64,000 nucleotides of DNA from Sedimentisphaerales bacterium (GCA_963663965.2 CAXXFK010000040.1:32001-96000); one strand, 5' to 3'; shown: positions 742 to 49,609, numbered from the stretch's first letter. The notes: generated by a model not told the origin, from the sequence alone. Translations and numbers: made by a program.

Positions 742-1034
742 CCTCCCCACTTCCAAACAGCATCTCCCATGCGCTGGGCTGTCGCCGTGAGTAATTGGGG
801 AGGATTTTCATCCTGCCCTACAAACAAAAATAATCCTATAATAGTTTATAGCACAAGAGTTTAAAAGATAACGGCGGCCAGAATTGAACCGGCGATCTGG
901 GGCTGTGAATCCCTGGTATGGCAAATGAGTATTAGAACTTCTTCAACAGTCAGGTAAGTGCGTATTGTTTGCCGGATTTTATCAATTCCACAGAAATTGA
1001 CACACATCCTACTCACTCCCCAATCAAAACCAGA
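742..1034. repeat. Junction J1: degenerate arm + tRNA-Met 3' fragment (869-910) + second arm
   Basis: TAACGGCGGCCAGAATTGAACCGGCGATCTGGGGCTGTGAAT matches 49536-49578 with about 5 changes. The flanks align with 17150-17460 (CACAAGAGTTTAAAA; ATTTTATCAATTCyACAGAAAT; CCCCAATCArAACCAGAA). Confidence 0.85.
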
Positions 1035-1097
1035 AACGAGTCTACCCGATATTTGCCAGGAAAAGAGTGCATGCCAAAATACTCGCTTGCTGATCCA

Positions 1098-1430
1098 TCA
1101 AATTATTCTATTCTGGAGAAAAGGCGCTTTCCGGGTGAAAAAGATAACGTAGACTGGCGCATAGCCAGGTAAGTTCAAGATAGTACCTGAGCGCCCTGGG
1201 ATCATGAAGTAAACATCGTTGCAAAATGGAGAAAAATTTCGTTCTTCCAGATCCTCATCATGCAGACGAAGAATCATTTCTCCCCAACCAGATATATTTC
1301 GATTCTTCAAAGTCAGAGTAACTATCTGGCGCATCAGAATTGTCCTGAGGTCTTTGGGAAGTGACATATTCATACCAGATATCATGACATGATTTATTGG
1401 ATTGCGTGCTTCCCTCGCTGATTTTATCAA
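1098..1430 (-). pseudogene. Fragment of a degraded gene of unknown function
   Basis: 110-aa ORF within a longer stretch of broken reading frames (~1050-1700); no recognisable motif. Confidence 0.25.
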
Positions 1431-1830
1431 GTCGTTCTTCCATATCCTTTTCCTGCCAGGAGACCACTTTAGATAACAGGCATATCGAGAATATGCCGGA
1501 TTATAAAAATCGTATTAAAAATATCGCATAAAAACGGCGGATAAGTTTAAAATTAAGGGATATATCTGCCCTGGCCATCGATGTTCTTAATTCCAGGCAG
1601 ACCCAAATCTTATAAAATTCCGTTTCCCTCCGGGCAATTTCAACTATCCTGTCTACTCTAAAATTTCTTTGGCTGGTGTCATTTTAGAATTATCCACCCT
1701 CTTATTATCAGCGCTCTCGGAAATCCCATGCTTTCTTTTATCCCACGATTTTCTTTAGTATTTCCAAAGTCTTCTACCTAGAAATGCCGTCTTTTCATCT
1801 TAAGAGTTCTGTTCAGTTTTGATAAGATAT

Positions 1831-3273
1831 TTACTGTGGCCATTCATAAGCGCCGATATCGGCAGCAGAACCTTGTGGGATGACCGTCCCCTCTATGTCG
1901 ACTTTCAAGCCCAAATTCACTCCCGCATCGATGCAGGGGGACTGGTTATTGATGTGAAAATCATTTTTCACAATATCGAACAACATGGGATCTTTCGCTA
2001 TAGAATGAATTTCTTTATTTAAAGCGGTTTGATACAACCCAAACTGATCCATCGAATATTTTTGAGATGGCGCCAGGATCATAATACCGGAACTCTGATA
2101 CCAGCAGTTGTGATCCATTTGGAGTGCATTAATCGCATCGGCGGACCATCCGGGGGCATAAAAGCCATTGCCCCGTGCTTCATAAAAAATATTGTTGCGG
2201 AGACAGATATCGTGGGCGGCCGCAGGGCTGGAATAAAAACATAAATGACGTCCGCTGGGATCCGGCCGCTGGGGATGACCCCAACCGGATCCGGCATTCA
2301 CGCAGGTGTTATTGTCGAAATAGATGTTATAGGTGAGTGAATTTTCGGGCCGGTTCCAGTATTCAAAAGAATACTCACAATTCCAGATCAGGTTCTGCCG
2401 ATAGGTAATGTTATACTGTTTGACATTCGACGCATTATTCTGATTAGTCAACGCCGCATCGTAGATCTCCCATAGCCGGCAATTTTCCACCAGATGATCG
2501 TGGGCATTCGCCCAGAATTCGATTCCATTACCGTAGCGAACCGGGTGTCCTTCCCGCGGTGGTGAATTGATGCCCGCCCCCGATATAGGAAAGGTCACAC
2601 CGGCGAATAATCAAATGGTGCGTACTACTGCCGCCGAAACCATGCGCGGCTCCGTAGCGCAGCGCCAGATCTTCAAACGTAATATAGCTTTTACCTCCAA
2701 TGTCAATAATATGTTGCTTTAATGCCAGTTCAATGCCGGTGTAAAGCAAGGCTGGGTTTTGAGAACAATACATCTTGACCCGCCTGGATTCCTGATCATA
2801 CCAGTAGTCTCCCGGTTGTTTCAGATCATCCGGTGACCATTTTTTTGACCCCCAACAGATTGCCCCCCATTAAATATAATGTTCCCGACATCTGTTGCAT
2901 ACGAGGAGGTGGTTGACCAGATATGATTCTGTTCGTCCTGCCAGTCCTCCGGTTGATTGGCGCTGACAGATCCAAGCAGTAAAGGTTTTTTCACCCATGC
3001 CATAAGCGCCATAGGTGACAGGACCGGTTTCGCCGCCACTCTGCGGAATCAACTGCCCGCGCCAGGTATCGCCTCGATGGAACCGGATCACATCATTGGG
3101 CTTGAATGATCCGCGATTGACGCGTTCCAGGCTCTGCCACGCGTTTTCAGGAGACAGCCCATTCTGAGTGTCTGAACCATCGCTGGAAACATAATAGACT
3201 TCTGCCATAACCAACTAGGGATAAAAAGAAAAGCGCTAGAATGGCAATCTGCCTGAGCCGGATAAAATGCCAT
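1831..3273 (-). CDS. Secreted right-handed parallel beta-helix protein, frameshifted into several ORFs
   Basis: Consecutive ORFs give a signal peptide, YYVSSDGSDTQNGLSPENAW...FKPNDVIRFHRGDTWRG, beta-helix repeats and a C-terminal DFHINNQSPCIDAG...DIGAYE motif. Confidence 0.75.
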
Positions 3274-5271
3274 GGATCGCCATCTTTGTATTGAAACTTT
3301 TTATTGTGAGCCATATTATTCACCTGAACACTCCGGTTCACCTCCAATGTCGCATCATTTCATCCATATAACATTAATTATCCCCAAACTTATTGCGGGA
3401 TCAAGAGAATTTCTTTTCACTAGAATGACATAATGGCATTATTGAAAATTCGGAGGTGGAATGATCTTCCCGCCAAGCTGTGGCGACATTTTCCTCGCGT
3501 GAATACGTCCCGTAAAACGGAGCATTACCGTCAAGCCAGACATAGATCCGCCGGTTTCTCTGTCATCGTTAAGCTGGGACCTGACCGGAATGAGTATCAT
3601 CTCCCAGTATTTCAATTAATGGACTTTCCGTCGTCGCCGACCGGCCCGGCCGCCGTTGCCAGTTGGTTAATGCTGTTACTGCCCCATTCGAAACCAGCGA
3701 ATGTAGGGCTTTAAGCTTTCGTAGGATTGACTGAATTGTCCCTGGGTTGCGCTCGTCAAGTTGAGTTGACTTTTCCCTTCACCTTCATTGCCATCATGAC
3801 ATCTGACACAATGACGATCCAATACCGGTTGAACCAGTACTGGAAAGCTGAATGGTTTCGATCCCTCCGGCCCGGGTTGGATGCGTGAGGGTTCCTGCTT
3901 CATTGCCAACAGATTTTGCGTGTTCGGCTGCACATCGCCTCGTCCTTTCATGACAGCCGACACAACTTCGGCGCTCCCCCGGTTGCAGATAGGTAATACT
4001 CCGCATCGTTTTGAATGGCTTTACCGGAAGCGTCCACCGCCTGGAAATAGATCGGCTTCCGCGCCGGGACCTGAAAATAGGCCGAGCCGTCCTGCTCCAC
4101 CGGTATCGTTCCCAACAGCATCCGCGCGCTCTCCGCGAAAGCATGACCGATCCTTGGTTGGTTGGCAATGTGATTATGCGTTTTCGGCAACACCTGGTAG
4201 ATCCTCAGTTCCCGAATCGCACGGTCCTCAGGCATCGCGAATAGACTACGGTTCACATCCGCCAAAAATAAATTCACCCTTGTCACCCAGATCGGGGTTC
4301 TGTACCGGGGGATCACCGCAGGTTTCGGACGTGGAACCAGGGGAATCGGGTACATACTTGAAATCCCTGTCTTCCGGTACAGCAGTTCCAGATTCCCAAA
4401 CGGTCGAAATAGTAGATCCCCGTTTCGGTATCCTTTTTCACTCCCGATCCCATTCCCGGTAGCGGATCGAAACTGAACGACACCAGAAAGTAATTTTCCG
4501 ACAGCGGCCATGGACTATGAAAATAACTGTCCGGCCAGCCGGATGCCTCAGGCAAACCGATCTCCGGCGTCAACTCTTCGATGGCATTAAAATCATCCTC
4601 TCCGCTCGTTTCGTCCAGTTTCTCTTTCGCCGGATCGAAGATCACCAGCGCCCCGCCCACATCGGCATGATGCGCCCGGCCACAAACAGAATCCGGTTGG
4701 AACCGGGAATCGCCTTCGGCTGATAGCACGCGTTGATTCGCTGGGTGTAATTCCCGAACAGCACGCTGGGATTCGTACCATCCGGATGACTCACCCAGAG
4801 CCCGTGATAATTCGCGGCCGACCGATCCACGTAGTCCCAGCGGATATACACAATCTGACCATCATTCAGAACCGATGGATGCCATTCGTTGGTTTCGTGT
4901 ACGGAAAGGGTTTGAATAGCCTGCCCCTCCGCATCCATCCGGTGTAATGTGTATGTGGGCAATGGCTCCCAGGGATTATGACACCGCCCGAATCCTCCCC
5001 GACGCGTAGACATAAACGCGACCCCGCCGTCAGGGAGCGGACACGGATCGAAATCATCTTCACACCCTATCGTCAATTGCCGGAGAGCCCCTTCCTCCGT
5101 ATCCATGGCGAAAAGGTGAAAACACTTCCTCTCCGCCGAATAAAAATCGGGTTTTTGCTCTGCTCGTTCTGCAAACGCAAAATAGAGGATTCCCGCATCA
5201 TAGTGTCACCGGGCGGGTTCAAAATCGACCATTGAGGGCGAATCAAAATCGACCACTCTGGGTAAAAAATA

Positions 5272-6022
5272 TCAGTATTTTTCCTTATTGCAAGCCTTAT
5301 TTCTGAGCCGATAGCTTTTGCCGGTAATCTGGATGATTTCGGCGTGGTGCAGGAAGCGGTCCAGGATAGCGCTGGCGCTGGGGACATCACCCAGCAGTTT
5401 GCCCCAGTCTTCCAGGGACGATTGGAAGTCATCACCGTCGAACGCAGTTCATAGCGCCGCATGATCACCCTCAAAGAGATATTCCCCGGATCGTCTGGGC
5501 AACTGCTTCATGCCCATATCGTCAATGATCAGCAGGTCCGGTTTCAGGTACTTGGCCAGCGCTTTTTCCAATCCGCCCAGGGCCTCATCCTGCAGGAAGT
5601 CGCGGACCACATCGAAATACCGAGCGGTACTTGACCACAAATCCGGTTTTTAATGGCCTGATAGCCCAACGCCTGGGCCAGATGACTCTTGCCGGTGCCC
5701 GGCGGCCCCAAGAACAGCACATCGCGCCGTTCGCGCAGGAAACCGGCAGCTGGCCAGATCGTAAATCTGTTTTTGTTTGACGGAGGGATTGAACTGCCAG
5801 TCGAAATCCTCCAGCGTTTTCAGTTCCCGAAAGGCCGCGGTCTTGACCCGCCGCTGGATCTGCCGATCCATGACGCACCAGCAGTTCATCTTGCAGGATC
5901 AATTCCAGGAAGTCCTGGTGAGATAACCGGTTGCCGGCCGCTTCCTGCAGCCGGATCTCCAGCGAGTCGGCCAGTCCGGACAGGCGCAGGCGTTTCAGCG
6001 CGGTTTGGATCGCATCATTCAT
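5272..6022 (-). CDS. istB: IS21 helper ATPase IstB (frameshifted in this sequence)
   Basis: MNDAIQTALKRLRLSG, KTLEDFDWQFNP, Walker A GPPGTGKSHL, YLKPDLLIIDDMG, STVMTSNRP, spread across several frames. Confidence 0.9.
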
Positions 6023-6191
6023 ACGAAGGTCTCCTTGTGATTGAGATAAAATAAAAGGTGCTTCACGCCGGGCTTTGCCATCCATACAGCAAAGAGGCTG
6101 AAAAGAGATAGGGGTGTGTGGGGGAAAGTGTCCCCCACGATCAAAACAGTTTTTCTTCCTTAAAATTAAAACCATGATATACTCCAAGAAC

Positions 6192-7727
6192 TTAACCGTG
6201 AGCCGCCGGAACCGACGGCAGGCATTGATCGTATTCACTCAATGGGCGGATAATGGGATGTTCTTCGATAAAATCAAATTGCGGCTGTTCAATCCCTGTT
6301 CCGCGTTTTAACAGGTCACGCAAAGTCCGCAGGCGAAACGCTCCATGTGTCAGGGCAATCCGGCAGGCCTGGTTAATCGCCGGGTGGTCATACTGCTTGC
6401 TCAGGGACAACAGGCCCATGAGCGCCCGAACGGCCGTGATCCCGCGGAACTCCAGCAGAGCCTCGGCCCAGGCCAGGGTTTCCGGCCCGATGTACCGGAC
6501 TTTGGTCAGTAACCAGGTGGATCCTTTTTCCACCCCCGAGCGTTTGCGTGCGTCGATGTGGCGATCATTGGTCTGGAACTTCCCGGCCTCCACCTGGGCA
6601 TGCGTCGCGATCGATTCCATGCGATGGTTGTAGATCCGTACCACCCGGCCGTCCCAGCGGGCCCAGACCGGATGCCCCAGATACTCCGGTGGCACGGAAT
6701 AGTAGGCTTTGGCGACTTCCACATGGCCGTCGCGATGCACCCGGCGTTGAGACTCTTGGAATGAAGGGAAATGACCGGACGGTAAGGGCAGCAAAGCCGG
6801 CTTGTCGGCCTGGTCAAAGATCTGGCGTACCTGTTGACGCATCGTGCCGTGAATCCGGGTATCGGCCACCCGCACTTCCCAATCCTGTAAAAAACGGTTC
6901 TGTTCGGCCAGCGAACTAAAGATCCGGCCCTTCAAGGCGTTGTCCTGCACATATTTGATTCCGCTTTCCACCTTGCCTTTGTGACGGGGTGTGTAAGGCC
7001 TGGCCGGCAGAATGACCGTCCGGTAATGGACACAAAACGATTGCAGTTTGGGATTCAGTTCCGGATCGTACCAGTCGGCCCGGGTGACCGCTGCCTTCAA
7101 ATTGTCGATAACCAGGGTTTGAGGCACACCCCCAAAATGCCAGAAGGCGTTCTCCAGACAGCGTAGAAAACTCTCGGTGGTCTGGTGGAAGACCGACTCA
7201 CTGTAGGCTTTACGCGAATGACTTAAAACCATGCGGAAGACATAAGTTCTTTTGCGTTTGCCATTGAGCCAGACCGGCGCGCCGGTGCCAAAATCGACTT
7301 GCGCTTCCTGGCCCGGCGGGCATTCCATCCGCCGATAGGGCAAAGGGCGGGTCTGGCCCAGGCGCCGCACAAACCGCTTGACACTGTCATAGCTGCCAGT
7401 GAATCCCTGCTCGCTTTGCAGATCCTGAAAGATCCGTTGTCCGGACAACCCCTGACCGAGTTTGTCGCAGATAATCTGACGATAGGGTTCGCACTGGCTC
7501 TGGCGGCCTGCCGACCCGGGGGGCGAAATGGTCGATTTTGGCCCACCGCCGATCTCGGACCCGGGGGGCACAATGGCCGATTTTGACTGTTCACGCACCA
7601 ATCGGACATAGCGACTGACCGTCTGGCGATGGATCCCCAGTCGGCGAGCCACCTCGCGCTGGGAAAACCCTTGTTCACAAAGAGTTATGATCTTATTCGT
7701 CTGTACCATGCTGATCTGATTGGCCAT
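6192..7727 (-). CDS. istA: IS21 transposase IstA
   Basis: Intact 511 aa; N-terminal HTH, PGQEAQVDFG, FGGVPQTLVIDNLKAAV, PRHKGKVESGIKYV. Confidence 0.95.
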   Translation of the reverse strand: MANQISMVQTNKIITLCEQGFSQREVARRLGIHRQTVSRYVRLVREQSKSAIVPPGSEIGGGPKSTISPPGSAGRQSQCEPYRQIICDKLGQGLSGQRIFQDLQSEQGFTGSYDSVKRFVRRLGQTRPLPYRRMECPPGQEAQVDFGTGAPVWLNGKRKRTYVFRMVLSHSRKAYSESVFHQTTESFLRCLENAFWHFGGVPQTLVIDNLKAAVTRADWYDPELNPKLQSFCVHYRTVILPARPYTPRHKGKVESGIKYVQDNALKGRIFSSLAEQNRFLQDWEVRVADTRIHGTMRQQVRQIFDQADKPALLPLPSGHFPSFQESQRRVHRDGHVEVAKAYYSVPPEYLGHPVWARWDGRVVRIYNHRMESIATHAQVEAGKFQTNDRHIDARKRSGVEKGSTWLLTKVRYIGPETLAWAEALLEFRGITAVRALMGLLSLSKQYDHPAINQACRIALTHGAFRLRTLRDLLKRGTGIEQPQFDFIEEHPIIRPLSEYDQCLPSVPAAHG

Positions 7728-8741
7728 GTCAAGCTCCCGTTTTTAGGTAACTTTAACAGACCAATTAGCCTTTCTTCAACATGGTCGATTTTAAACTGCC
7801 CCCTCGTGGTCGATTTTAACCGCCCCTTGACATCATAGGAGAGCGCCGGCGTGGTGAAATTGCCCCGGGGCAGACGTCCCTGGATCAAATCTCGAATTTC
7901 AAAAGAGTCGCCCGGCTTCTCTAATACATAGATCCCTCCACCGGAAATGTCGCCATAATCATAATAATATCCCAGGTATTCATGGAGCATCTGGCAGATA
8001 AAACGCCGCCGCTGCATGAATACCAGTTTCTTCCCCGCCAACAGCGGATTCCGCAACGCCAGCTTGCGTGTGACCGTCCGAAGCGTAAGATACAATTCGA
8101 GCCGTTGGCCCAGGTCCAGCGTTTCGAGCTTGCCAACCGGTTCCTCCAAGTCTTGCAGCTGCGCCGCCTCCGATTGATAATCGCCAGGGCTTGACAACCT
8201 CCGCAAATCGTGAAGTAAGGCCTGGGTCCGTTGCCATAACTCCTGGATCGCCGCCGGATCATACATCGAACGATTGTTACGCCTTTCCTGTCGGGCCCAA
8301 TCCTCGATGATCACCTGGTCGTAAGACAGTTCCGAATCGTTCGCCTGAACCGGCAGATCGAATAGGATTACTGTCCCCAGAAAAACCAGGAAACTGACCA
8401 CCCATTGACATCGCTTCGAGTTCATCTGATCTTTCCTGTTCAAGCCGTTTGAAACTTACTTCCTGAAACATCTATACCCCTAACCCGGCACAGCCGCAGC
8501 CAAACAGGGCCACAATGGCATCCGCTTCCCTGTCGAGATTTCCTTGCCATTTTGCCCAGGATTTCACTCATAAGAGACTAACAAAAGAAGCATTTCTAAG
8601 TCAAGAAAATTCATTTCCGCAAGTACTTTACCGGCAATTTTCAAAAAACCCGTTTGGGGGCCCTGATATCCCATATATGATTGCTCAAACGAACCGAAAA
8701 GACACATATTTAAACAGGAATATCGGTTTACGATAGATCCG

Positions 8742-8951
8742 AAAACAGACATTAGAACTCCTCTGAAACTCAATATTCACTGTTTGAGAAAGGCCTATGG
8801 CGCCACTCAGGCCAATCATGGTGTCCCTTTTCAGACACTCCAAAAAATGATGGGGCATAGTTCGATAGTCACGACTATGCAATATTACCTTAAAAGTAGT
8901 CCAGAGCAGGAAGAAAAGGCAAAAAGGGTGATGGAGAAGGTCATGGGGTAG
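8742..8951 (+). pseudogene. Junction J2: 3' fragment of a tyrosine integrase
   Basis: Translates to KLNIHCLRKAYGATQANHGVPFQTLQKMMGHSSIVTTMQYY...VMG* (HxxR, GH and catalytic Y); 12 differences in 210 bp versus 47307-47516. Confidence 0.9.
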
Positions 8952-9004
8952 GGGGGAAAATGAGCTGATGATCTTGATATTCCCAAATTACCTATCTAAC
9001 AAAA

Positions 9005-12904: not shown

Positions 12905-12931
12905 TAACCATTCCTATAATATTCAATTGAT

Positions 12932-12972
12932 AAAAATGCCTACCGGATAATCTTCTGAACCCGGCAGGCATT
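12932..12972 (-). terminator. Probable intrinsic terminator
   Basis: Hairpin AATGCCT-ACCGG...CCGG-CAGGCATT with a minus-strand T tract, just after the 12976 stop. Confidence 0.55.
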
Positions 12973-12975
12973 ACA

Positions 12976-37736: not shown

Positions 37737-37756
37737 TTTGGTTTACCTTCAATCTG

Positions 37757-39376: not shown

Positions 39377-39379
39377 AAG

Positions 39380-39607
39380 TCATTGTCTCCAAATAGGGTT
39401 CAAGTTTATATTATGCAAAGTCATTTCCATCCACTTCGATAGCGATTCCTGCGCTGGGGCCGGATATGTGATGACCTTCGCCCTGGCAATATGAATCCAT
39501 ATGCTACCGAGCCAAAGAAGCATCCAGAAACGCATGGTTTTTACTCGACAGGGGCTGTTATCCGCCAGAAGACTCATCGGATTTATTTCGTATCGTTCAA
39601 TCGGCAT
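39380..39607 (-). pseudogene. Truncated duplicate of the 5' end of the GH28-like gene
   Basis: MPIERYEINPMSLLADNSPCR...TYPAPAQESLSK matches the first ~58 aa of 36261-37736. Confidence 0.85.
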
Positions 39608-39655
39608 CGTTTAAGTTTGCCTCAAATCTTTCATTTATACGGCTTACTGGTACCC

Positions 39656-42193
39656 TTACTTTGTTTCCGCAAGCCAATCGTTTACGATGTCAAGCAGGTT
39701 AGAAAACCGATATGCGTTTAGCCAACCACTCGACAATATGCCCATGTCCGGAAGGTCTACGCGATTGTCCAAAGTCAAGTCGCCCGGATACAATGGAGCC
39801 GATTGTTCATGACTGTTACCCGATTCATTGTTGTTGTTATCGACGGCTGTCACCACATAGTAATAGATTTTTCCCGGTACCGCGGTTGAATCGGTGTAGT
39901 TAGTCGTCCCTGCATTGGTACTGCCGATCACAGCATATCCGCTGCCGCTGACAGTCGACCGCTTGATGTTATAGTGGTCAAGATCGCCCGCGTCGTTGGC
40001 ATCCCAACTCAGCTCAACGGCTCCTCCTTGTGCGCCGGCGACAAGGCTGGTCGGAGCCGTCGGAGGCGTCGTGTCCGGCGAAAATTCAATTAAAGGATTC
40101 CACTGGGTATAATCATAGTTTCCATTGCCATTATCATTAATATGGAAACATATCCGATCACCAGCGCTGACTGCAATGTTGGCTACTCCTGCGGGGGCAA
40201 CTTCAGTATCGGGCGCAACCGTGTCACTCCATAAAAGGCTGGAGTTTTTGTAAATTAGGGCCACTACCCCATTGCCTGCGGTTAGACCGGTTTTAGAGAC
40301 AGACCCGGTAATGTGGTTTATCACACCGGATTGAGGCGCTTCCCAAACGCGCACCGTGTCTATGCCCGGGCCGGGATGGCAGGCATTGGAGAAGATTTGT
40401 AAATAGGTTGTAGATCCTTGCCATCTATTATGGGCAGCATCCCAGACCATATCCGTGTAGGTGTTTCCATTATATTCCTGATAGAACCAGTTGTTGCCTC
40501 CCTGAACGCCGGAAAAATCAACCGAGGCCTGAAATATTACGGGCGCCGGCCCACTAACATCTTCGCAGTTCTCAAGAAGGATCGTGTCATACACGTTGCC
40601 ATCCAGGATCAATCCCTTTGTTGAGGTGACCCGGATGTGAGGATTACCGACATTCGTAATCGTGTTATTCCTGAGGACGATGTTTCCATGGGCCCCTGCC
40701 GGCGCAAGCCCGCCTGCCCCGGGGGTGGCGTAGATCGCGATGCCATCGCCAACACAGTTTTTGATACTATTGTCGCTGAATGTTACATTCCAGGAACTGC
40801 CGGACTCCAGCCACCAGAATTCCGGTGAACACTTGATAGCCTCATCCCAACAGCCCTCGATCACATTCCCCTGTACAATGCCGTTACTGGCCTTGATCAG
40901 AATCCCTCGAGACCGGTTAAAGCCGAAGTCGCAGTTGATCACCTTAAATCCGTTGCCCATGCGGTTAGCGGCCGCAATCAGGCTGCCCATGGGCAGATCA
41001 ATGGCGCGATCAATCTCGATCTCATAGGCATTGCCTATATTACCCTCTTTGTAGGTGGCGTGCATACTCTGATGGGAGAGGAAATCGAGTTCCTCCGCCG
41101 TCGCTCCACCCATTGGGCCTGATACCCGTACCGCCACGGCATCAGGCAGGCGCAAACCGGTGTAGGACCATAGCTCGATGGGATCACCCGGCTGGATGTT
41201 CATACTGCTGCCTTTTGCCAGAACTCGAAGGGTCTGGCCGTTGCACGCCATAATCATATGGTACTCACCACAGATGTTGACGCAATCATCCCCCTGGAAC
41301 CTGGCCGTGCATCCTTCAATGGTGGGCCCGACAATGGCATGTTTTGAATGGAAGGCGTCTGCATCGAGAGAGCGGATGCGCGGATCCTCGCGCACTTTCA
41401 GGTCGGTCGCCGCCGGTCGCCGGTCGATTTTGCAGCGGAGGTAGTGCGTACTGTTGCAATTGGTCTCGAAAAAACCGAAGCAGTTCGAGCCATAGAGGGT
41501 GATATCCTGAAGAGTAACACCTTCTGAATCTTTTATCTGGATCCCATGCGGGATACTGCCGCCGGGGGCATATTGATAGTTGATGACGATGATGTCGCCG
41601 ACCTTTTCCCCTTTATAGGCACCTTCACGGGTGACCCTGATGTGTCTGGAGTCTATCTTTTCATGGGAGAATGTGAAGTAAGAGCCCCAGCGCAATGTGC
41701 GGGTCGCGGAATCAAATATCTCATACTTGGAATCTATGACGCCTTGCGAACCCGGATAACCGTCGAACAACTCGATCTCGTGGATGGTATTGTTTGCCGA
41801 CATGCTCTTGATGACCCCTTGCGTGTAGGGCAGCGGATCATAGTCGATCGTTAATCCCTGAATGGTCAGGTTCGTGCAGTTATCGATAAGAATCGCCTGA
41901 GTCGTTTCGGTACAGACCATTTCCACGCCGTCGGCAACAATCGTCACATCGTTGAGGTTCTGAAACAGCAAGTGTTTGCGACTTCTCGGGGCAACATAGT
42001 AGCGTCCTGGAGCAATTGTCACGATACGGTATCCCTGGGCCAGTTGATCGTCAATCATTTTCTGCAGGTTCGTAATCTGATCGGCCGCCTGCGCGGCAAT
42101 CGGAACCATCATGGTAACAAAGAACAACAATACCACAATGGAAACGAGTCTTAACGTTTTATTGAGTACCATACTTTTAGCTGACTTTCGCAT
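39656..42193 (-). CDS. Secreted beta-helix (GH110-like) protein with FN3 domain and dockerin-like tail
   Basis: TIDYDPLPYTQG, SLDADAFHS, QGDDCVNICG, RSRGILIK; DTTPPTAPTSL...YYYVVTAVD; GDLTLDNRVDLPD...WL. Confidence 0.8.
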   Translation of the reverse strand: MRKSAKSMVLNKTLRLVSIVVLLFFVTMMVPIAAQAADQITNLQKMIDDQLAQGYRIVTIAPGRYYVAPRSRKHLLFQNLNDVTIVADGVEMVCTETTQAILIDNCTNLTIQGLTIDYDPLPYTQGVIKSMSANNTIHEIELFDGYPGSQGVIDSKYEIFDSATRTLRWGSYFTFSHEKIDSRHIRVTREGAYKGEKVGDIIVINYQYAPGGSIPHGIQIKDSEGVTLQDITLYGSNCFGFFETNCNSTHYLRCKIDRRPAATDLKVREDPRIRSLDADAFHSKHAIVGPTIEGCTARFQGDDCVNICGEYHMIMACNGQTLRVLAKGSSMNIQPGDPIELWSYTGLRLPDAVAVRVSGPMGGATAEELDFLSHQSMHATYKEGNIGNAYEIEIDRAIDLPMGSLIAAANRMGNGFKVINCDFGFNRSRGILIKASNGIVQGNVIEGCWDEAIKCSPEFWWLESGSSWNVTFSDNSIKNCVGDGIAIYATPGAGGLAPAGAHGNIVLRNNTITNVGNPHIRVTSTKGLILDGNVYDTILLENCEDVSGPAPVIFQASVDFSGVQGGNNWFYQEYNGNTYTDMVWDAAHNRWQGSTTYLQIFSNACHPGPGIDTVRVWEAPQSGVINHITGSVSKTGLTAGNGVVALIYKNSSLLWSDTVAPDTEVAPAGVANIAVSAGDRICFHINDNGNGNYDYTQWNPLIEFSPDTTPPTAPTSLVAGAQGGAVELSWDANDAGDLDHYNIKRSTVSGSGYAVIGSTNAGTTNYTDSTAVPGKIYYYVVTAVDNNNNESGNSHEQSAPLYPGDLTLDNRVDLPDMGILSSGWLNAYRFSNLLDIVNDWLAETK

Positions 42194-42647
42194 TGATGTT
42201 TTCGTTATTTCATTACTCAGCAGGGCTTTAGTCTCTTACGAGTAGAGTCTTGCGCAAAATGGCAAAGAAAACATAACAGGGTGAACCATGCTGCTATGAC
42301 CCTGTTTGGCGCCGGCACTGCCGGATTAGGCATCAATTCCAATAACAGTCATGTTCGACTGCCTGCTCGAACATGACATGATCTATTTCATTTACATTCT
42401 AACAGCTCTGCGGCTATATGTCATTTAACGCTTCGCAACAAAAAAATACAAAAGTACTCTTTTAGAATCTCCAATGATGATCCTTTTATTTATAACTCCT
42501 GATGCCATGCCGTTTGGGATACCTGGAATGATACCTACTGGGTAAGAAAGTTGCTGAGCGCTCGCAAGCTAACATATTACTCGCTCTGCATTTATCTTCC
42601 GGCGCAACGGAAAAATCATTTGTAATGGGTATCGCTTCCGATAACAT

Positions 42648-42683
42648 AAAAGCAGGGCGGCCAGTCAAGTCTGGACCGCCCTG
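42648..42683 (-). terminator. Intrinsic terminator
   Basis: CAGGGCGG-CCAG...CTGG-A-CCGCCCTG hairpin with a minus-strand T tract, after the 42709 stop. Confidence 0.65.
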
Positions 42684-42708
42684 TATATTGTTGTTAGGAC
42701 ATCAATAC

Positions 42709-44283
42709 TCAATAGTATAAGGTTTCGGTCAGAGTCGAATCTTCCAGCCAACTCTGTGCTAAAGCCGCAAAATCGGCAAGATCGACAACACAGTTGCCCG
42801 TGATATCGCCGGCCGGATCGCCCGCATAGCCGGGAGACTGACGGGCGGCCTGGCAGGAATTGGCGTATACCCCAACCTGGCACTGAGCCGACTCTTCCCA
42901 ATAGCCATCATTGACGGTAAGTGTCAAAGTCCGTACACCGGTCGAACTGATAGTCAGCGTTGGATCTTCAATCGCCGCGTTGTCAAATACAACATCCGGA
43001 TCATCCGCAGGATCAACCGTCCATGCATAGGTTATTCCAGTTGTATCATCAACCACAGTAGCATCCATCAGAATAACCGCTTTGCCGGTTACCTCATCAA
43101 GCCAGGAGCTTACATTCTTAATGCTTATTTCAGGCTTAGCGTTATCAATTACCAAAAATTTTAGTACAGCACCTTCGATAGTGCTGCCGCTTCCATTATC
43201 AATATCAACCTGCCAGTAATAGGTTTGGCCGGCAACAATTGGCTGCGGAGCGGATGAGCTGCGAGTGCCGGTGGTCACAATCATGCCATCAACGGCCTTG
43301 CTGTAAACAGCCGGATTCAATTTGTTGGGGTCTGTACCAAACCAGACATCTGCATTCATAGTCGCGCCGACATGATTTGGATCGATATAATTATCCCATT
43401 CCAGGGTAACGGTGCCCGAGCCCCCAGTTGTCAGGATGATGCCGTTGTACTCAGGAAAAGGATTAAGTGGATTTATCGCTGTAACGGTCGTACGCCCCGG
43501 AGTAGTTTCATTGTAGTCATAAACAATTGTACCTTTGCCGCCAAAGCCAACCAGTTCTCCGCGGTCTATCATCGTTTGAACATCTGTCGTCCTGTTTCCG
43601 TTAATAATCCATGTTGCAAAATCAATATCGACATTCAGACTGCCGGTCGGGCTATCGTAGAGGGCTAATACGGCTGGATTTAAATATCCAGTGTCAAAAA
43701 GACCATCATTCAAGTCCAGCGTAACCTGACATTTTGACTCGTAAGCACCCAATTGGTCGTTCTTTATTGTTCCACCGTTCAAGATTAACTTACCTTGCCG
43801 CGTACCTGAACCCCAGTCACCGAATAACATCAGCCCACATTCTGCGTAACCGCCTTCGTTGACGATAAGGGTTCCATTGGCATTCTGGCCACCGCAAAAG
43901 GTGAATCTTTGACCCGGGTTGTTCCAGGTTCCGTCGACCTCGGCAGTAAAAGTGGAGGAACCTGCCTCTCTTGAAATGAAGACGGTCCCGCCTGAATTCA
44001 GAGTGGCTCCCGGGGCGATGTACAAACTACTTACACCGCCATAATGGCCGAATGATCCTGCACCATGCGAATAACTTTCGCCGGCAGGTATTTCTACAGC
44101 ACCGCTTGGGATTCTGACTTCATCAGCGGATGTTGGCACAGTCCCGCTATTCCAGTTTGCCCCAGTACCCCAGTTGGAGTCCGAACCGCCGCCTGTCCAG
44201 CTGACAATTGCAGCCAAAGCCGGGGTACTGATACAAGCTATACACACCAATAAAAAGGTTCTTTTCAATAAAACAGTACTCAT
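42709..44283 (-). CDS. Secreted protein with passenger-like beta-strand region, PKD-like domain and dockerin-like tail
   Basis: Signal peptide, WTGGGSDSNWGTGANW, TYYWQVD, GDITGNCVVDLADFAALAQSWL. Confidence 0.75.
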   Translation of the reverse strand: MSTVLLKRTFLLVCIACISTPALAAIVSWTGGGSDSNWGTGANWNSGTVPTSADEVRIPSGAVEIPAGESYSHGAGSFGHYGGVSSLYIAPGATLNSGGTVFISREAGSSTFTAEVDGTWNNPGQRFTFCGGQNANGTLIVNEGGYAECGLMLFGDWGSGTRQGKLILNGGTIKNDQLGAYESKCQVTLDLNDGLFDTGYLNPAVLALYDSPTGSLNVDIDFATWIINGNRTTDVQTMIDRGELVGFGGKGTIVYDYNETTPGRTTVTAINPLNPFPEYNGIILTTGGSGTVTLEWDNYIDPNHVGATMNADVWFGTDPNKLNPAVYSKAVDGMIVTTGTRSSSAPQPIVAGQTYYWQVDIDNGSGSTIEGAVLKFLVIDNAKPEISIKNVSSWLDEVTGKAVILMDATVVDDTTGITYAWTVDPADDPDVVFDNAAIEDPTLTISSTGVRTLTLTVNDGYWEESAQCQVGVYANSCQAARQSPGYAGDPAGDITGNCVVDLADFAALAQSWLEDSTLTETLYY

Positions 44284-44558
44284 TTTGCACCTCGAAAATA
44301 AAAAAGTGAAAAGGTTACAACTTTAGAATATCAAACAGTTAGCTTTTCTGTTTGTATCTACACAAACCTGATATTCTTCTGTCGCTTTGACTGACGGCCA
44401 CCAAAGCCGCCATCGTACAGGTTAACATGAAACGACTAACATTTTCGCCATTCAATTCTCCTTACAAAAAATTTAAACATTAACTTTGATACATCCACAA
44501 TTTGCTTTTTTCAGTTTAGCAGTATACTTTAAAAGCCATGTCTATTTGCGCTTTCTTC

Positions 44559-46265
44559 TCAATCCTGCAAAATCAGCTCAGGCGCCCCAAAAACACCGTG
44601 GTCATTATCATTGCTCTGCTGGCCGCAAGTGACGAGCAAGGTTATAAACCGGTGAGTTCCCTCAGTCAGGTCAATTTCAACAGGAACAGCGTTGTTTTCA
44701 ATATGCTTCAGCGATTGATAAAAAACCGGTTTTCCATCCAGGAAAACATGGAAATCCGCCGTCCTTTCGGGGTCATAGTTGTTTTTAATGATTGACTCAT
44801 TAATTCCGCATAACGCCTTGAATGAAACAATGCTGAGACCGGAAATGTTTTGCCGAATCTTATCCAGATCAAAGGTGATCCCGCAGTTAGCATGTATCAG
44901 GATCGCGGGGTTCTCATCGACGCCATATCTTGTTCCGTTCAGAGTCACTATACCCTCTTTACGGTATGGCTGCGTCTGAATCCTCCACCGCATGCTTCCT
45001 GTGAGCTCGGGAAAGTCTGGAATACTTAAACCGGTTGTGCTGAGCGGCAGGTTTCCGCTCGCCTCGTACCCGGGGACGATCACACAGTCCACAGCAGGCA
45101 GATCAGGGACCGCTCGCATATACGACAAGTGTAATTTCGTCACTCCGGAAGGATCGGACCCCAAAGGCGTCTCCTCAGTAGCAGTAAAGCGGCCCGTATC
45201 AGGCATAATACAGAATCCTTTCCTTCCCGTTCCAAAACCATTTCCACCGCTCACAATATCGGCAAGATCAATACTTTTTTTACCCTTCCAAATAAAATTG
45301 TTAATGGAGTCAATCTGATGAACAAACCGAGTCTTATTGTAGGGTATATCCCTGACAAATCCATCGTTGTAAACCTTTTTGGCGGCGCCGGCATCCACAT
45401 TTACCTCGGATTTATTGCCGCTTTGAAAACCAGTGAAAAGCACTGTCCTGCCTTTGGTTACATGCAGTTGAGTTTCTTTGTTTGTATCGACTTCAACACC
45501 GAACTCGGTGCCCAGGTCAACGATCTTATTATCTCCGGCCACAACTGAAAAGCCCCTTGCTCTTTCGGGAACAATGGTATAAATACGGCCGCGTACCAAC
45601 TCCATTTCATTATCATTCAGCAAAACCCATGTAGCGGGAGCTTCGATTGTCATATTTGTCCCGCTATTAAAATCAATACTCACATAGCCATGGGTTAATC
45701 GGTAGGTTTTTTGGATTAGATGGCCATTCTGGTCGGGCGTTTGCATTGAGTGATCCCAAACAGCGCCGATCTGGTCGATAAGCCGGGCGACTACGGGAGG
45801 GGAGGGGGCGTTTTGGTGTCGTGTGAGCCAGACGTCAAACCACAACAATGCCATAAATGGCATCATAAAACAGGCCACATTAAACAGTATCCGCCGTCGG
45901 TAACCAACCGGACGGGGGCCGCGAGGGGTATAGCTTCGGCCCACCATATCTTCTTCCGGTTCTTCCATAACAATCCTGGGGGCGGTCTTTTCTTCTTCGG
46001 CCAGTTTCTCTAATGAACAGGTGATATCTTCAGAGACATCATCCCCTCCTCTACCGATAACATCAGCTTCTGATGCCTTGAGATTGTCTTTGCTCAAATG
46101 CCAATCCAACCCGGTATGAACAACCATAAGCTCCAGGTAATATTTCATTGCTTGCGGGTCAGCCGCTAGAATCTTGCCCAGTAACTCTTGCTGCTGATCA
46201 TCGGCACTGCCATTCATAACCGCAATAATCAGCTCGCCCAGATCTGTTTTATCTATATGCTTCAT
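44559..46265 (-). CDS. FecR-domain anti-sigma factor with C-terminal NPCBM-like domain
   Basis: One TM helix, GFSVVAGDNKIVDLGTEFGVEV, IHANCGITFDL...FGAPEL. Confidence 0.88.
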   Translation of the reverse strand: MKHIDKTDLGELIIAVMNGSADDQQQELLGKILAADPQAMKYYLELMVVHTGLDWHLSKDNLKASEADVIGRGGDDVSEDITCSLEKLAEEEKTAPRIVMEEPEEDMVGRSYTPRGPRPVGYRRRILFNVACFMMPFMALLWFDVWLTRHQNAPSPPVVARLIDQIGAVWDHSMQTPDQNGHLIQKTYRLTHGYVSIDFNSGTNMTIEAPATWVLLNDNEMELVRGRIYTIVPERARGFSVVAGDNKIVDLGTEFGVEVDTNKETQLHVTKGRTVLFTGFQSGNKSEVNVDAGAAKKVYNDGFVRDIPYNKTRFVHQIDSINNFIWKGKKSIDLADIVSGGNGFGTGRKGFCIMPDTGRFTATEETPLGSDPSGVTKLHLSYMRAVPDLPAVDCVIVPGYEASGNLPLSTTGLSIPDFPELTGSMRWRIQTQPYRKEGIVTLNGTRYGVDENPAILIHANCGITFDLDKIRQNISGLSIVSFKALCGINESIIKNNYDPERTADFHVFLDGKPVFYQSLKHIENNAVPVEIDLTEGTHRFITLLVTCGQQSNDNDHGVFGAPELILQD

Positions 46266-46861
46266 TATATATCTTCTGTACGCAATTTCCAGTTAATGCA
46301 TTCCATTAACTGGCTGTTTATTCTCGCCATAACCTTATAAAGACCTTGGATCGAACGGCCGGCCTCCTCGGCAATGGATTTGATCGTCTTCTTTTGTTCG
46401 TAATGTAATTTCAGCAATTTAATATCCTTACCGGGCAATTTCTTCAAACATTCCTGCAAATGACCTATCCTGCTATCGGTCTGGTTCACCGTGGAGGATG
46501 CCGATTCAATGATCTTACGAAACTGCTCATCGTTGAAATGGATCCGGCTGCGCTGCATCTTCTTGCGATAAGCCATGACCTTATTCAACGCAATTTTTGC
46601 ACCCCAACCAAAAAAATTCGTCCCGGGCTCAAATTCGCCAAATTTCTGCCACATCACCGAGGCCGTCTCCTGCATGAGATCATCCGCATCAGCAACATTT
46701 GTCACTAACATCAGGATATAGGCCCGTATCCGGTTCTGATGCAGCATGAACAGGCTAAAGAATAACTTCGATTGTTCGTTTTCCATTTTCATATTATTGA
46801 CCGGAAAGTCCGAATATGTACATATTTTAGACAATCTCCTATTATCTGCCGGGCTGTCCAT
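46265..46861 (-). CDS. ECF sigma-70 factor (planctomycete type)
   Basis: RIRAYILMLV...ADDLMQET...WQKFGEFEPGTNFFGW; adjacent to FecR. Confidence 0.92.
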   Translation of the reverse strand: MDSPADNRRLSKICTYSDFPVNNMKMENEQSKLFFSLFMLHQNRIRAYILMLVTNVADADDLMQETASVMWQKFGEFEPGTNFFGWGAKIALNKVMAYRKKMQRSRIHFNDEQFRKIIESASSTVNQTDSRIGHLQECLKKLPGKDIKLLKLHYEQKKTIKSIAEEAGRSIQGLYKVMARINSQLMECINWKLRTEDI

Positions 46862-47128
46862 AAACTAGCAATTAATACTATTCCCTTATCGCCGAGAGCA
46901 CCATCCCAAAAAATTGAGGGCAAGTGAATACATTTCACACCTATTTATTACCTGCCAATTATAAATTAGAGCATAAATATTAAAAAACCAACCATAATTA
47001 CCATAAGTATATACATAACATAACGTTACAAGAACACCGAATTCTCACCTTTAAAAAGAGCCAAGGTTACTGAATCAGCATGACATCCAGCCCCCTACTA
47101 CCCTATTTGTGATAATCCACTCCCCCAT

Positions 47129-47155
47129 ACCTCCGTGACAACCCTGCCATTTTCC
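47129..47155. repeat. Junction J8 left part: 27-bp perfect direct repeat with 49363-49389
   Basis: ACCTCCGTGACAACCCTGCCATTTTCC at both positions. Confidence 0.92.
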
Positions 47156-47194
47156 AGTTGTCCTTTTGTCTTTTTGACTCCTGCCAGATATAAG

Positions 47195-47516
47195 CTGGTC
47201 TGTCAGAAATGGCAGGAAATTCGACTGGCAGGAAAAGACAGAAGAAGAATGGACTAATGAGAAAATGGCTAATAATATACTCAGAAATTTTAAAAGGCAT
47301 TGTCTAAAAATAGACATTCGAACCCCTCTCAAACTCAATATTCACTGTTTGAGAAAGGCCTATGGCACGACTCAGGCAAATCATGGTGTTCCTTTTCAGA
47401 CACTCCAAAAAATGATGGGGCATAGTTCGATAGTCACGACCATGCAATATTACCTTATAAGTAGTCCTGAGCAGGAAGAAAAGGCAAAAAGGGTGATGGA
47501 GGAGGTCATGGGGTAG
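47195..47516 (+). pseudogene. Junction J8: 3' fragment of a tyrosine integrase
   Basis: ...MANNILRNFKRHC...IHCLRKAYG...LQKMMGHSSIVTTMQYY...VMG*; no upstream box-I Arg or N-terminal domain. Confidence 0.9.
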
Positions 47517-47558
47517 GGGGGGAAGTGATTAAATGGCGAAATGAATACTGGCATCAAT

Positions 47559-48086
47559 CTACAAATCAAGCTTCTCTTTAAATCTTTTAAGTGTTTGCAT
47601 TTTAATATATTTGTTCTTGGATTGAATATCTTGAGCAATATGATATGCTTTCTTGTCTGTTATTACCTTTGCAGAAACCAAATATAGCATAATTTCCAAT
47701 CCCCAGATACAGTGTATTTTATGGAGAGAACATATAGTTCTCAAAGGCTTGTCATTAGTAAGGCAAGTCCAATCCTTATCTCGTGCCATAACAAAACAGA
47801 TGGCGTCCTCTCCTGACAGAGAAGGCTTTTTCATTCTGATTTTAGTTGCCTCAATGATTTGTAATAATGTTGGTTCGACTATTACAATACCGAGGTCCAG
47901 AACCTCTTTAATGCTTAATTGGTCAACTTCTTTTAAAACAGGCAATGGGATGTATAGCGTTTGAACATGCTTACTGATTAGCCTTAGAAGATCAGGTGCA
48001 GACTTGGCATAATCTATCAAAACATTAGCATCAGATATTATTCCGGCTTTGATAGTTGTTTTTGTCATACAGATATTTCCGCCCAT
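47559..48086 (-). CDS. PIN-domain protein (DUF3368-like), putative nuclease/toxin
   Basis: IISDANVLIDY, VLKEV, LSGEDAIC, LTNDKPLR acidic PIN pattern. Confidence 0.8.
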   Translation of the reverse strand: MGGNICMTKTTIKAGIISDANVLIDYAKSAPDLLRLISKHVQTLYIPLPVLKEVDQLSIKEVLDLGIVIVEPTLLQIIEATKIRMKKPSLSGEDAICFVMARDKDWTCLTNDKPLRTICSLHKIHCIWGLEIMLYLVSAKVITDKKAYHIAQDIQSKNKYIKMQTLKRFKEKLDL

Positions 48087-49201
48087 GAATTGATTATCTC
48101 CCTCATATTCATGAGCGATACATTTAATATTTCTGCTGCTCGACTAACAGTAATTTCTGCTTTATCCAATGCTTTTCTGACAAGGGAAACGAGATAATCT
48201 TCTACGAAGTCAGGTTTAGTAAGTGGGAATGGTTCTTTGTGAGAACCCAGATTATCTCCATATTTGAGTTTATAGATAGCATGGAATTTTTGTGATAATT
48301 TTCCATAGTCGCCTAATTTCATGTCTGACAACCGATGCAAAACAGCCTGATAACTAACGCCAAAATACCGTTTAATGTGCAAAATACGATCAATGAATCC
48401 AAGTCCATAGGATTCATCAAGTTTCTTTTTGAAAGTCTCATCTGGCATCAAGAAATATCCTGCGAAGATATTCGCTTCTTTTTCTTCTTGTTCGGATTCT
48501 TCCGTTTGAACAGGATCATATGCCTTTGGATGTAATATGAGATGTCCTAATTCATGGGCAACAGTAAATATTTGCCTTTCAATCGATATATTGAAATTAT
48601 TATTAACCATGATTGCAGGTCCACCATCTAATTCTGATATAGAAAAGCCAAAGAAATGCTTAAGATCAAAACTTTGAGTTTTAATCTTGATGCCGGCATT
48701 TTCCATTAAGCCAATAATGTCTCCAATTGGCTCATCTACTTTCAATTTCAATGCCAATCTCGTCAATTCAGCAGACTTTTTGGGACGGTCAGATTTTATT
48801 TTTCCCGCATCTTGAATGACTTTTTTGAGTTTATATTCTTTTTTGTCTGCAACTATTGATTGGAGGTGATTGAAATTCTTAAGCCAGTACGCTGCGTCAA
48901 TCAGGTATTGTTCCTTTTTAGCCTCTTCTTTTTGATTTTTGATTGAATTACTTCTGAACCGAACCGTATTGAGTTTGATGGGTTCTTCAAATAAATCTAC
49001 AATTGATACATCTAAGGCGTCGGCAATTGCCTGTAGATTACTTACCTTAGGATCTTTAGTCTTCCCGCTTTCAATATCAACAAAGGCTTGTCGTGAAATG
49101 TTTGCGGACCTTGAGATAGCAGTCTGGGTAATACCCCGACTGATTCTTATTCGTTTTATATTTATGGAAAGCAGTTCTTGTGGATTCATGATGCCACCCA
49201 A
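48065..49201 (-). CDS. Xre HTH fused to ImmA/IrrE (M78) metallopeptidase
   Basis: N-terminal HTH; RQIFTVAHELGHLILH (HExxH), EKEANIFAGYFLMP. Confidence 0.92.
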   Translation of the reverse strand: MGGIMNPQELLSINIKRIRISRGITQTAISRSANISRQAFVDIESGKTKDPKVSNLQAIADALDVSIVDLFEEPIKLNTVRFRSNSIKNQKEEAKKEQYLIDAAYWLKNFNHLQSIVADKKEYKLKKVIQDAGKIKSDRPKKSAELTRLALKLKVDEPIGDIIGLMENAGIKIKTQSFDLKHFFGFSISELDGGPAIMVNNNFNISIERQIFTVAHELGHLILHPKAYDPVQTEESEQEEKEANIFAGYFLMPDETFKKKLDESYGLGFIDRILHIKRYFGVSYQAVLHRLSDMKLGDYGKLSQKFHAIYKLKYGDNLGSHKEPFPLTKPDFVEDYLVSLVRKALDKAEITVSRAAEILNVSLMNMREIINSWAEISV

Positions 49202-49253
49202 TCATTTATTTACATAGTATCTTTAATAACACAATATGACAAGCTGACTTTAC

Positions 49254-49283
49254 ATTATATGCATCGTCTACAATAACTGTCAA
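49254..49283 (-). promoter_or_regulatory. Consensus sigma70 promoter
   Basis: Minus strand TTGACA-N18-TATAAT upstream of the Xre-ImmA gene. Confidence 0.7.
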
Positions 49284-49362
49284 GTTGAATATTTTCATTA
49301 TATTTCCCACAATTCATGTTGTAGCCCTAAAACTGACACAGTTAACACAAACCCACCCCCTG

Positions 49363-49535
49363 ACCTCCGTGACAACCCTGCCATTTTCCCCGTTCACCCC
49401 CCACACCCTCACCACTCAAAACCAGAATGCCAAAGACGCTGTACAGTCGCTGGGAGGAGTATTTAAGCAATTTCGACCTGTTTCATAAAATAAAAAAACT
49501 CCTGCAAAAGTTTATTTCACAAGAGTTAAAAAAAC
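49363..49535. repeat. Junction J9: arm repeat abutting the tRNA 3' end
   Basis: 27-bp repeat, then CCACTCAAAACCAGAATGCCAAAGACGCTG...CTCCTGCAAAAGT...CACAAGAGTTAAAAAAAC. Confidence 0.92.
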
Positions 49536-49609
49536 TAGCGGCGGCCGGAATTGAACCGGCGACCTGCGGGCTATGAATCCGCCGCTCTAACCATCTGAGC
49601 TACACCGCC
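49536..49609 (-). tRNA. tRNA-Met (CAT), elongator type, CCA not encoded
   Basis: GGCGGTGTAGCTCAGATGGTTAGAGCGGCGGATTCATAGCCCGCAGGTCGCCGGTTCAATTCCGGCCGCCGCTA folds as a cloverleaf; paired position 1-72 and no three-GC initiator stem. Confidence 0.95.

Follow-up and report, generated by a model that had tools for sequence, protein, structure and literature searches.

One tRNA-Met gene in the draft genome of a Sedimentisphaerales bacterium stands at the end of a long row of accessory genes, and this row is most probably the product of successive site-specific insertions of one tyrosine-integrase element family into the anticodon loop of that gene, followed by erosion. The stretch analyzed here—hereafter the window—comprises 64,000 nucleotides (nt) of contig C40 (G000:C40:32001-96000; all positions below are counted from the first letter of the window unless a contig is named). 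The window lies within a 192-kb contig of a draft genome of 7.24 Mb in 42 contigs, estimated to be 94.6% complete with 5.4% contamination. Three lines of evidence carry the interpretation: displaced copies of the 3' half of the tRNA gene that all break off at the same position, arm sequences that accompany these copies in a constant order, and remnants of one integrase family lying in the same row.

What singles out the tRNA gene as the target? The window contains one tRNA gene, an intact tRNA-Met(CAT) on the minus strand (49535-49610; ARAGORN and Rfam RF00005, 62.4 bits), whose 3' 44 nt—here called t3, 49535-49578—served as the reference copy for identities. Displaced copies of t3 occur three times, all on one strand: at ~868-910 (38/43 positions identical to the live gene), at 15828-15873 (41/45 aligned columns), and at 17277-17320 (43/44). 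In a multiple alignment, these three fossils and a fourth on contig C13 (described below) depart from the tRNA after ...TATGAAT, in the anticodon loop, and beyond this break all four run into a common non-tRNA sequence, nCCTGGC...AAAA. A common break point and a common continuation in four co-oriented tRNA 3' copies (gene included) are not predicted by duplication plus decay. These features, together with the arms and the integrase remnants, bear out the proposal, made in an earlier note on this DNA from the sequence alone, that one element family used this tRNA-Met repeatedly.

The tRNA fossils are embedded in junctions, all on the plus strand, that share one plan: an X arm on the tRNA-proximal side (motif A followed by a segment B of ~90 nt between motif A and t3), then t3, then a Y arm on the distal side, which at J0 and J17 extends via ~100 nt of segment D to a second copy of motif A. 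Complete junctions are found only at J0, at J17, and at the tRNA itself, the rest being truncated. J0 (742-1035), the most distal and most decayed of the complete junctions, has a degenerate A and B, t3 at ~868-910, D, and the second A at 1003-1035. J17 (17150-17490), the complete internal junction, has its X arm at 17150-17276, t3 at 17277-17320, D, and the second A at 17441-17488. J15 (15679-15889) retains the X arm, t3 at ~15828-15873, and only ~17 nt of the Y arm, and J14 (14353-14461) is an X arm remnant with A and half of B, without tRNA piece or Y arm. The isolated arm remnant J30 (30597-30679) is of the Y (second-A) type by its flanks. J49 (49356-49578), the newest X arm, reads motif C at 49356-49389, A at 49410-49442, and B at 49443-49534 before entering the tRNA.

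The earlier note had listed nine junctions in one orientation, and co-oriented remnants are indeed present at all nine places, on one strand. Chance is excluded as their source: motif A with at most three mismatches gave four matches in the window against 0.00 expected, and its twin CGCTGG core gave six against 0.09 expected, each of them a plus-strand match at a junction. One of the nine had been drawn too long; the part at 8520-8741 drops out, the integrase 3' end occupying 8742-8963 and 8479-8581 being an unrelated dispersed repeat of 104 nt. A genome-wide BLAST check of the motifs, which the note had called for, upheld their local character. Every junction matched only this window and, once, contig C13; thus, the junction sequence is not a generic dispersed repeat.

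The arms themselves may hold integrase-binding sites. The core of motif A, ACGCTGK-N5-CRCTGG, consists of two CGCTGG half-sites 11 nt apart (49436-49453 at J49). A second word, CCCCAMTMA, lies upstream of the core and was seen nine times against 3.4 expected, with seven of the nine at junctions. In a lambda-type phage attachment site (attP), the arm-type integrase sites are a motif that recurs in both arms in the same orientation. Motif A, likewise in the same orientation in both arms, is the predicted arm-type binding site of the integrase. Segment B contains, in its half nearer to the tRNA, a terminator-like hairpin on the minus strand (49527-49497, 13 pairs plus a T run, by consensus scan), and the hairpin recurs at J17; by these scans, the elements seem to bring, or to copy, the tRNA's own terminator. 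Motif C was first taken as a 27-bp component of the master order of the junctions and turned out to be 34 nt long with two copies only (47122-47155 and 49356-49389, 94% identical). The copy at 47122 can be read as coding sequence of the integrase, PLPHTSVTTLPFSS, with the well-conserved CPFVFLTPARYKLV after it, and the copy at 49356 stands isolated, 20 nt from motif A. Direct copies of integrase-internal sequence thus stand at both ends of a 2.2-kb segment. We also considered motif C as an X-arm component; the alignments favour integrase coding sequence, which would make an arm component the less likely reading.

Do the integrases that would have acted on these sites survive? Searches with tblastn and with a hidden Markov model (HMM) built from nine full-length relatives recovered three remnants, all on the plus strand and all terminating ...GTCATGGGGTAG. 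The longest (47117-47516) comprises the last ~120-137 of ~412 codons, has motif C at its 5' edge, and matches Pfam PF00589 (E 8e-11); taken as 47117/47150-47516, it corresponds to HMM positions 293-412, with a frameshift near 47229-47242. The next (8742-8951) holds the last 69 codons (HMM positions 344-412, also found by tblastn). The third (24768-24788) is a vestige of the last seven codons plus the stop, with 21/25 nt identical to the other copies. HMM scores of the three are E 8e-38, 7e-26, and 3e-6, and the six-frame translation of the window held nothing beyond the remnants below E 0.6. The copies at 8742 and at 47307-47528 are 94% identical over 222 nt, a likeness that ends abruptly at 8742/47307, and similarity among the copies ceases within ~10 nt past the stop. 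Each of the three stops lies 43-57 nt from the stop of a converging last cargo gene. The earlier view that the elements' machinery had been either deleted or never carried can be sharpened in favor of its first part: integrases were once present and then truncated, as the three remnants show.

Neither the window nor the 7.24-Mb draft genome contains a full-length integrase of the remnant family, which for the window agrees with what had been claimed. A six-frame HMM search of all contigs gave ten frames at E ≤ 1e-3, three of them the window remnants and seven distant recombinases, and tblastn with the 67-residue integrase C-terminus over the genome returned the remnants only. The proposed hunt for a full-length gene thus came back empty at home, and it led in the databases to full-length relatives of which the closest are 46-56% identical over the last 83 residues; a homologue search for longer integrase proteins gave 12 matches, the best 56% identical. 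Further afield, a related-locus search with the integrase stub returned one locus, which was unrelated; a motif-A pattern in metagenome contigs found 15 loci, none with junction or integrase similarity; and a pattern of tRNA half plus Y arm in genome contigs found 34 loci, none related. The HMM detected no N-terminal integrase fragments in the window, where short ones could escape references this distant. A split integrase of the SSV (Sulfolobus spindle-shaped virus) type, in which attP lies within the integrase reading frame and integration leaves an N-terminal and a C-terminal piece at opposite ends, was also considered and set aside, on the grounds that no N-terminal fragments were detected and that the remnants do not adjoin the tRNA pieces.

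How old are the junctions relative to one another? Identity of the A-B-t3 unit to J49 drops with distance from the tRNA, from 85% at J17 to 82% at J15 and 73% at J0, and the longest integrase remnant is the one nearest to the tRNA. By this decay of identity the row is polarized, as had been proposed, with its oldest part farthest from the gene; this polarity fits a history in which each newcomer entered at the live tRNA and shifted its predecessors away from it. Three insertions are firm, one per t3 fossil. The number would rise to six or seven if each stranded arm or integrase stub stands for a further element, and the eight or more entries first suggested thus come down to three firm and six or seven inferred. 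The degenerate X arm that forms the left part of J0 points to a further element, since cut by a multi-copy insertion sequence (IS) of 1.23 kb.

A recurrent spacing hints at the plan of the element. Wherever an integrase stop survives—four of four cases, three in the window (8951→14353, 24788→30624, and 47516→49410) and one on C13—there come after it 1.8-6.2 kb of unrelated cargo and, next, an A motif. In another genus (G008), the C-terminal stub of an integrase from this family has, 4.2 kb further on, an A-like motif with the twin half-site. On the strength of this pattern and of the G008 stub, we propose that the layout of the element was probably Y arm - integrase - variable cargo slot - X arm. 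The attP of the free element would have been X arm - tRNA 3' half - Y arm, and each insertion would have supplied a new tRNA 3' half and terminator while displacing older elements from the gene. Deletions and insertion sequences would then have removed the 5' parts of the integrases and some of the junctions, so that the remains of six or seven elements, probably no longer mobile, now form a patchwork.

The same family has left a trace elsewhere in the genome. A remnant on contig C13 (G000:C13:121207-127851; L001 9208-15852) starts just after serA and is without a tRNA gene. Its order is a degenerate integrase 3' end, 6 kb of cargo, and A-B-tRNA half-Y arm, with the junction at 127653-127851 and the integrase copy, the fourth known, 6.3 kb to the left of that junction. 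The C13 cargo comprises three proteins without Pfam match and an AraC/PBP regulator; a Schlafen/AlbA_2 gene follows 3.6 kb further. Of the seven other recombinase frames in the genome, five lie within 200 nt of a tRNA gene: tyrosine-recombinase frames that converge, at distances of 21-197 nt, on the 3' ends of tRNAs for Asp, His, Arg, a second CAT tRNA, and Leu (C40:188299-189477, C2:34546-36018, C3:11589-12521, C22:91322-92848, and C24:2176-2805). Thus, tRNA-targeting elements are common in this host genome. The same geometry, an integrase converging on a tRNA 3' end, is found in a relative (G013). In G008, a full-length 413-aa integrase of a different lineage (L051, G008:C44, 9262-10547) has a stop that overlaps a 3' fragment of tRNA-Met lacking an adjoining 5' half.

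Relatives also inform the arms. An AT-rich hairpin downstream of tRNA-Met occurs in two other genera (G004, L049 18143-18193; G005, L073 2989-3062), so that the architecture of the arms, judged by these comparisons, may be conserved while their sequence differs. Further out, G004 and G005 each carry their own direct repeat with an 11-nt period (TTTAGGCACT twice in G004). To the right of the tRNA, on the core side, lie Maf and DUF192 genes that are not beside tRNA-Met in any of six relatives compared, so that synteny does not mark the left boundary of the array. The core side also holds a sulfatase gene split in two (52489-53925).

Several observations weigh against the accretion of integrase elements as we have reconstructed it. 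The integrase 3' end, which had been placed immediately after the second A, is never seen there; at J0 and at J17 alike, ~7 kb lies between the Y arm and the integrase remnant, so that the layout requires large replacements within the integrase genes. Neither an intact element nor a cognate integrase that would show attP directly was found, the best full-length database relatives being as distant as stated above, and since the draft is incomplete, at the completeness, contamination, and contig number given, such an integrase may lie in the portion absent from the assembly. Near the tRNA, B is similar to the DNA that lies downstream of tRNA-Met in G004 and G005, and some of the repeat unit may therefore belong to the native flank or terminator, not to an element arm. 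The duplication of motif C beside motif A at J49 is beyond simple deletion. Finally, tRNA pieces are present at three junctions only, the further entries being inferred from partial arms.

Could the repeats have arisen without a mobile element, if the tRNA-Met locus and the flank downstream of it had been copied by segmental duplication or by homologous recombination? The likeness of part of B to the native tRNA-Met flank in other genera would suit this explanation, as would the 34-nt duplication of motif C, which shows that events that were not site-specific did occur. We nevertheless regard it as very unlikely: the displaced tRNA pieces all end at one anticodon-loop position and continue in a common non-tRNA arm, integrase remnants accompany them, and the blocks between the junctions are unrelated in content and GC, the GC of the array being patchy (0.33-0.55) where that to the right of the tRNA is 0.52-0.61. 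An artefact of assembly or binning is a concern with any metagenome-assembled genome, here one with 5.4% contamination, and the supporting data are low-depth: two public metagenome runs with window sequence, from one sample, at ~2-5x depth there. Contig cover in each run was compared for positions 1-20000, of which 668-5336 had little or no cover and are uninformative, and the per-run contigs break at 17261-17290. Yet one per-run contig of 8,511 nt spans 8766-17276 unbroken, ending short of the J17 tRNA half but crossing J14 and J15, which are therefore not mis-joins; the junction copies differ from each other by 15-27% and are therefore not collapsed repeats; and the window lies well inside a much longer contig. 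The probability that the array is such an artefact is slight in the extreme.

Is the array still mobile? A more far-reaching alternative to the accreted and eroded row holds that it is a working gene-capture platform, in which modules that lack an integrase but retain usable attachment (att) arms are excised, shuffled, and co-mobilized, integron-like, by an integrase supplied in trans. J0 and J17 are complete, 86-nt repeats (family D7), 95% identical to each other, stand on either side of the 32-kb proximal block, and the proximal cargo genes look intact. In addition, a contig of 942 nt (depth 2.06, run X1) runs from an A-like stretch and 35 letters unique to the B segment of J49 into t3 and the Y arm and on to 18072, and so links a J49-type arm with the tRNA half and the Y arm that lie at 17.3 kb. 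A circle or a tandem copy of 17321-49534 (32 kb) would give such a junction. J17 and J49, however, share an exact run of 34 nt (17271-17304 = 49529-49562), and the three differences of the contig fit a switch from J49 to J17 inside this run. The contigs were presumably built from 31-letter words, shorter than the run. With a run that exceeds the word length and a depth of 2-5x, a graph chimera is as likely as a real recombinant. Moreover, a crossover in the anticodon loop would carry the J49-type base at 17305, and the three differences suggest otherwise. Against a working platform there is also the failure to find the cognate integrase in the draft genome, the truncation of most junctions, and, by consensus scans, both a terminator-like hairpin between tRNA and cargo and a promoter that belongs to the cargo itself. 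We therefore think it improbable that the array works in this way. It is similarly doubtful that tRNA-Met is a live capture site in this lineage, at which att-armed modules are excised, duplicated, and re-stacked by an integrase from outside the assembled genome and from which the 32-kb block circulates as a composite unit. If true, the array would work as a tRNA-based analogue of an integron, that block being its circulating unit.

What did the insertions bring, on the reading of successive integration and erosion? The cargo lies mostly on the strand of the tRNA, as had been noticed before (28/38 open reading frames of at least 100 aa inside the array); GC skew is below zero over the entire window, the core side included, and a strand bias of this general kind accounts for the co-orientation just as well. 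Nearest to the tRNA (47559-49201, minus strand) lie a gene for a protein with helix-turn-helix (HTH) and M78 peptidase domains (48065-49201) and one for a 175-aa partner (47559-48086). Both look intact, and a sigma-70-like promoter with 12/12 consensus positions lies ahead of the first cargo gene (49283-49254, consensus scan). The HTH-M78 protein matches 15 RmrA models of PADLOC, the best at E 1.5e-34 over nearly its full length, and the partner has a weak PIN_4 match (E 0.007). Two-gene pairs of an RmrA-type HTH-M78 protein and a variable toxin are those named Rosmer, and by these profile matches, weak for the partner, the newest cargo would be a Rosmer-like defense or toxin-antitoxin pair.

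Farther out, the blocks change in character from one to the next. A 16-kb polysaccharide-utilization block (30680-47116, minus strand, by Pfam) contains Exo_endo_phos, two sulfatases, GH28, an alpha-galactosidase, beta-helix proteins, and a FecR/NPCBM (anti-sigma) protein with an extracytoplasmic function (ECF) sigma factor; a 202-nt direct repeat (85%) occurs at 37561 and 39435 within this glycosidase block (37561-39636). The block at 24789-30596 (minus strand) holds a Schlafen/AlbA_2 protein, an IS4-like DDE transposase (25700-27013, plus strand), and a 1,067-aa GLUG-repeat protein, in whose gene internal repeats (27480-30240) form a 300-nt pair at 90% and a 55-nt family of seven. A lipid-modification cluster with an IstB fragment (17491-24767, plus strand, by Pfam) comprises a desaturase fragment, an amine oxidase, DUF1365, a broken cyclopropane-fatty-acid synthase gene split over three frames (21114-22277), DUF1295, and DUF2177. 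Between J15 and J17 sits a mini-block on the plus strand (15890-17149) with an HTH-XRE gene (16023-16532) and a Fic/Doc gene (16532-16963), and one PEP-CTERM gene occupies 14377-15270. Surface-protein cargo on the minus strand (9005-14186, by Pfam) includes a 1,299-aa Calx-beta protein, a C-type lectin protein, and a PEP-CTERM protein. The most distal interval (1036-8741) holds gene fragments and a copy of an IS21-family IS with istA and istB (5203-7832, minus strand, 2.6 kb, by Pfam), copies of which on C33 and C6 are 99.6-99.7% identical. The 1.23-kb IS that cuts the outermost element carries an HTH_32 domain, occupies window positions 1-710, and abuts J0 on its left, ending near 710; it has nine further copies at 93-98% identity. 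Both insertion sequences are young. The 104-nt repeat met above, unrelated to the junction family, lies at 8479-8581 (plus strand) and 42228-42330 (minus strand). It begins CCTAAACCGGCAGTGCCGG, a short hairpin, and ends ...ACTCGTAAGAGACTAAA, and it gave 22 BLAST matches on 16 contigs in both orientations, with two abutting copies on C42 and a copy on C30 directly after a 307-aa recombinase frame.

The row is a clear record of ~49 kb of accessory genes gained at a single tRNA gene in a probable planctomycete, the gains being surface proteins, polysaccharide-utilization genes, and toxin-antitoxin or defense pairs. The phylum is weakly suggested by one conserved oxidoreductase of the window, for whose nearest clusters Planctomycetota is the commonest phylum, in agreement with the earlier note. 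The record holds an internal clock, in that older junctions are more decayed, and one plan for the element, with integrase, cargo slot, and att arm, recurs in it. A full-text literature search for Planctomycetes genomic islands with integrase and tRNA gave nothing on topic among the matches listed.

How does the array compare with known systems? The resemblance to an integron that the earlier note had put forward is confined to a one-directional store of accessory genes beside a recombination site. Unlike in an integron, no recombinase frame exists in the window beyond the three remnants, hence no IntI, and the block boundaries found are tRNA halves and att arms. Consensus scans place a hairpin after the tRNA and give the newest cargo its own 12/12 promoter, where an integron would have a common one, and the blocks are not single promoterless cassettes but multi-gene units, which bring an ECF sigma factor and HTH regulators of their own and hold insertion sequences and pseudogenes. 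The closer parallels lie with islands that accumulate at tRNA and transfer-messenger RNA (tmRNA) genes. To the earlier note, no description of such an array in Planctomycetota was known; the mechanism itself is not new: tandem accretion at such genes, members without integrase, and fragmented integrases have all been published.

The tandem islands of the Islander database (Hudson, Lau & Williams 2015, PMC4383910) share with the present array an intact tRNA gene, co-oriented displaced 3' fragments, an anticodon-centered crossover, a tyrosine-integrase family, and stacking at one tRNA gene. The figures given in that report include 2,083 islands with anticodon-centered sites and, among 3,919 islands, 125 tandems of two or more and four of three or more; by its rule for arrays, an array is accepted only if each island has an integrase. 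No island here has an intact integrase, unlike in those arrays, and several junctions are down to one arm. Tools that demand one integrase per island, Islander among them, reject arrays of this kind, and the share of such arrays in genome growth is therefore likely under-counted. Accretion of cis-mobilizable elements (CIMEs), as a review presents it (PMC5704250, citing Pavlovic 2004 and Bellanger 2011), concerns arrays that adjoin a working conjugative or mobilizable element and are moved by the integrase of that element. CIMEs have lost their genes for integration and transfer yet keep attL and attR. Integration genes are lost here, and complete att junctions persist only at J0, J17, and the tRNA; unlike in CIME arrays, no such partner or integrase was found in the array or genome, and most att sites are damaged. 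The ssrA arrays of Dehalococcoides, in the account of McMurdie (2011, PMC3146451), are multiple tandem islands bounded by direct repeats of the ssrA 3' end, with 15 islands without an integration module that are proposed to be cis-mobilizable or fixed. They are alike in having tandem islands behind one small-RNA gene, 3'-end repeats, and members without an integration module; their target is a tmRNA, their recombinase a serine recombinase, and their repeat 20 bp long, where here the target is tRNA-Met, the recombinase family is tyrosine, and the repeat spans 44 nt, with arms of ~130-170 nt in addition.

The tycheposons of Prochlorococcus offer a further parallel, in which successive integrations push older elements into an island, with the tRNA as the seed and the elements as the vectors, and in which fragmented integrases and extra partial tRNAs are scattered throughout the islands, as the preprint by Hackl et al. 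describes them (bioRxiv 10.1101/2020.12.28.424599). The present array differs in phylum and element family, and no replication or transposon-like module was identified in it; successive pushing, fragmented integrases, partial tRNAs, and the tRNA as seed are common to both. Overall, the array represents a known way of genome growth, its mechanism not new, and among tandem tRNA islands it is unusually long and fully integrase-stripped.

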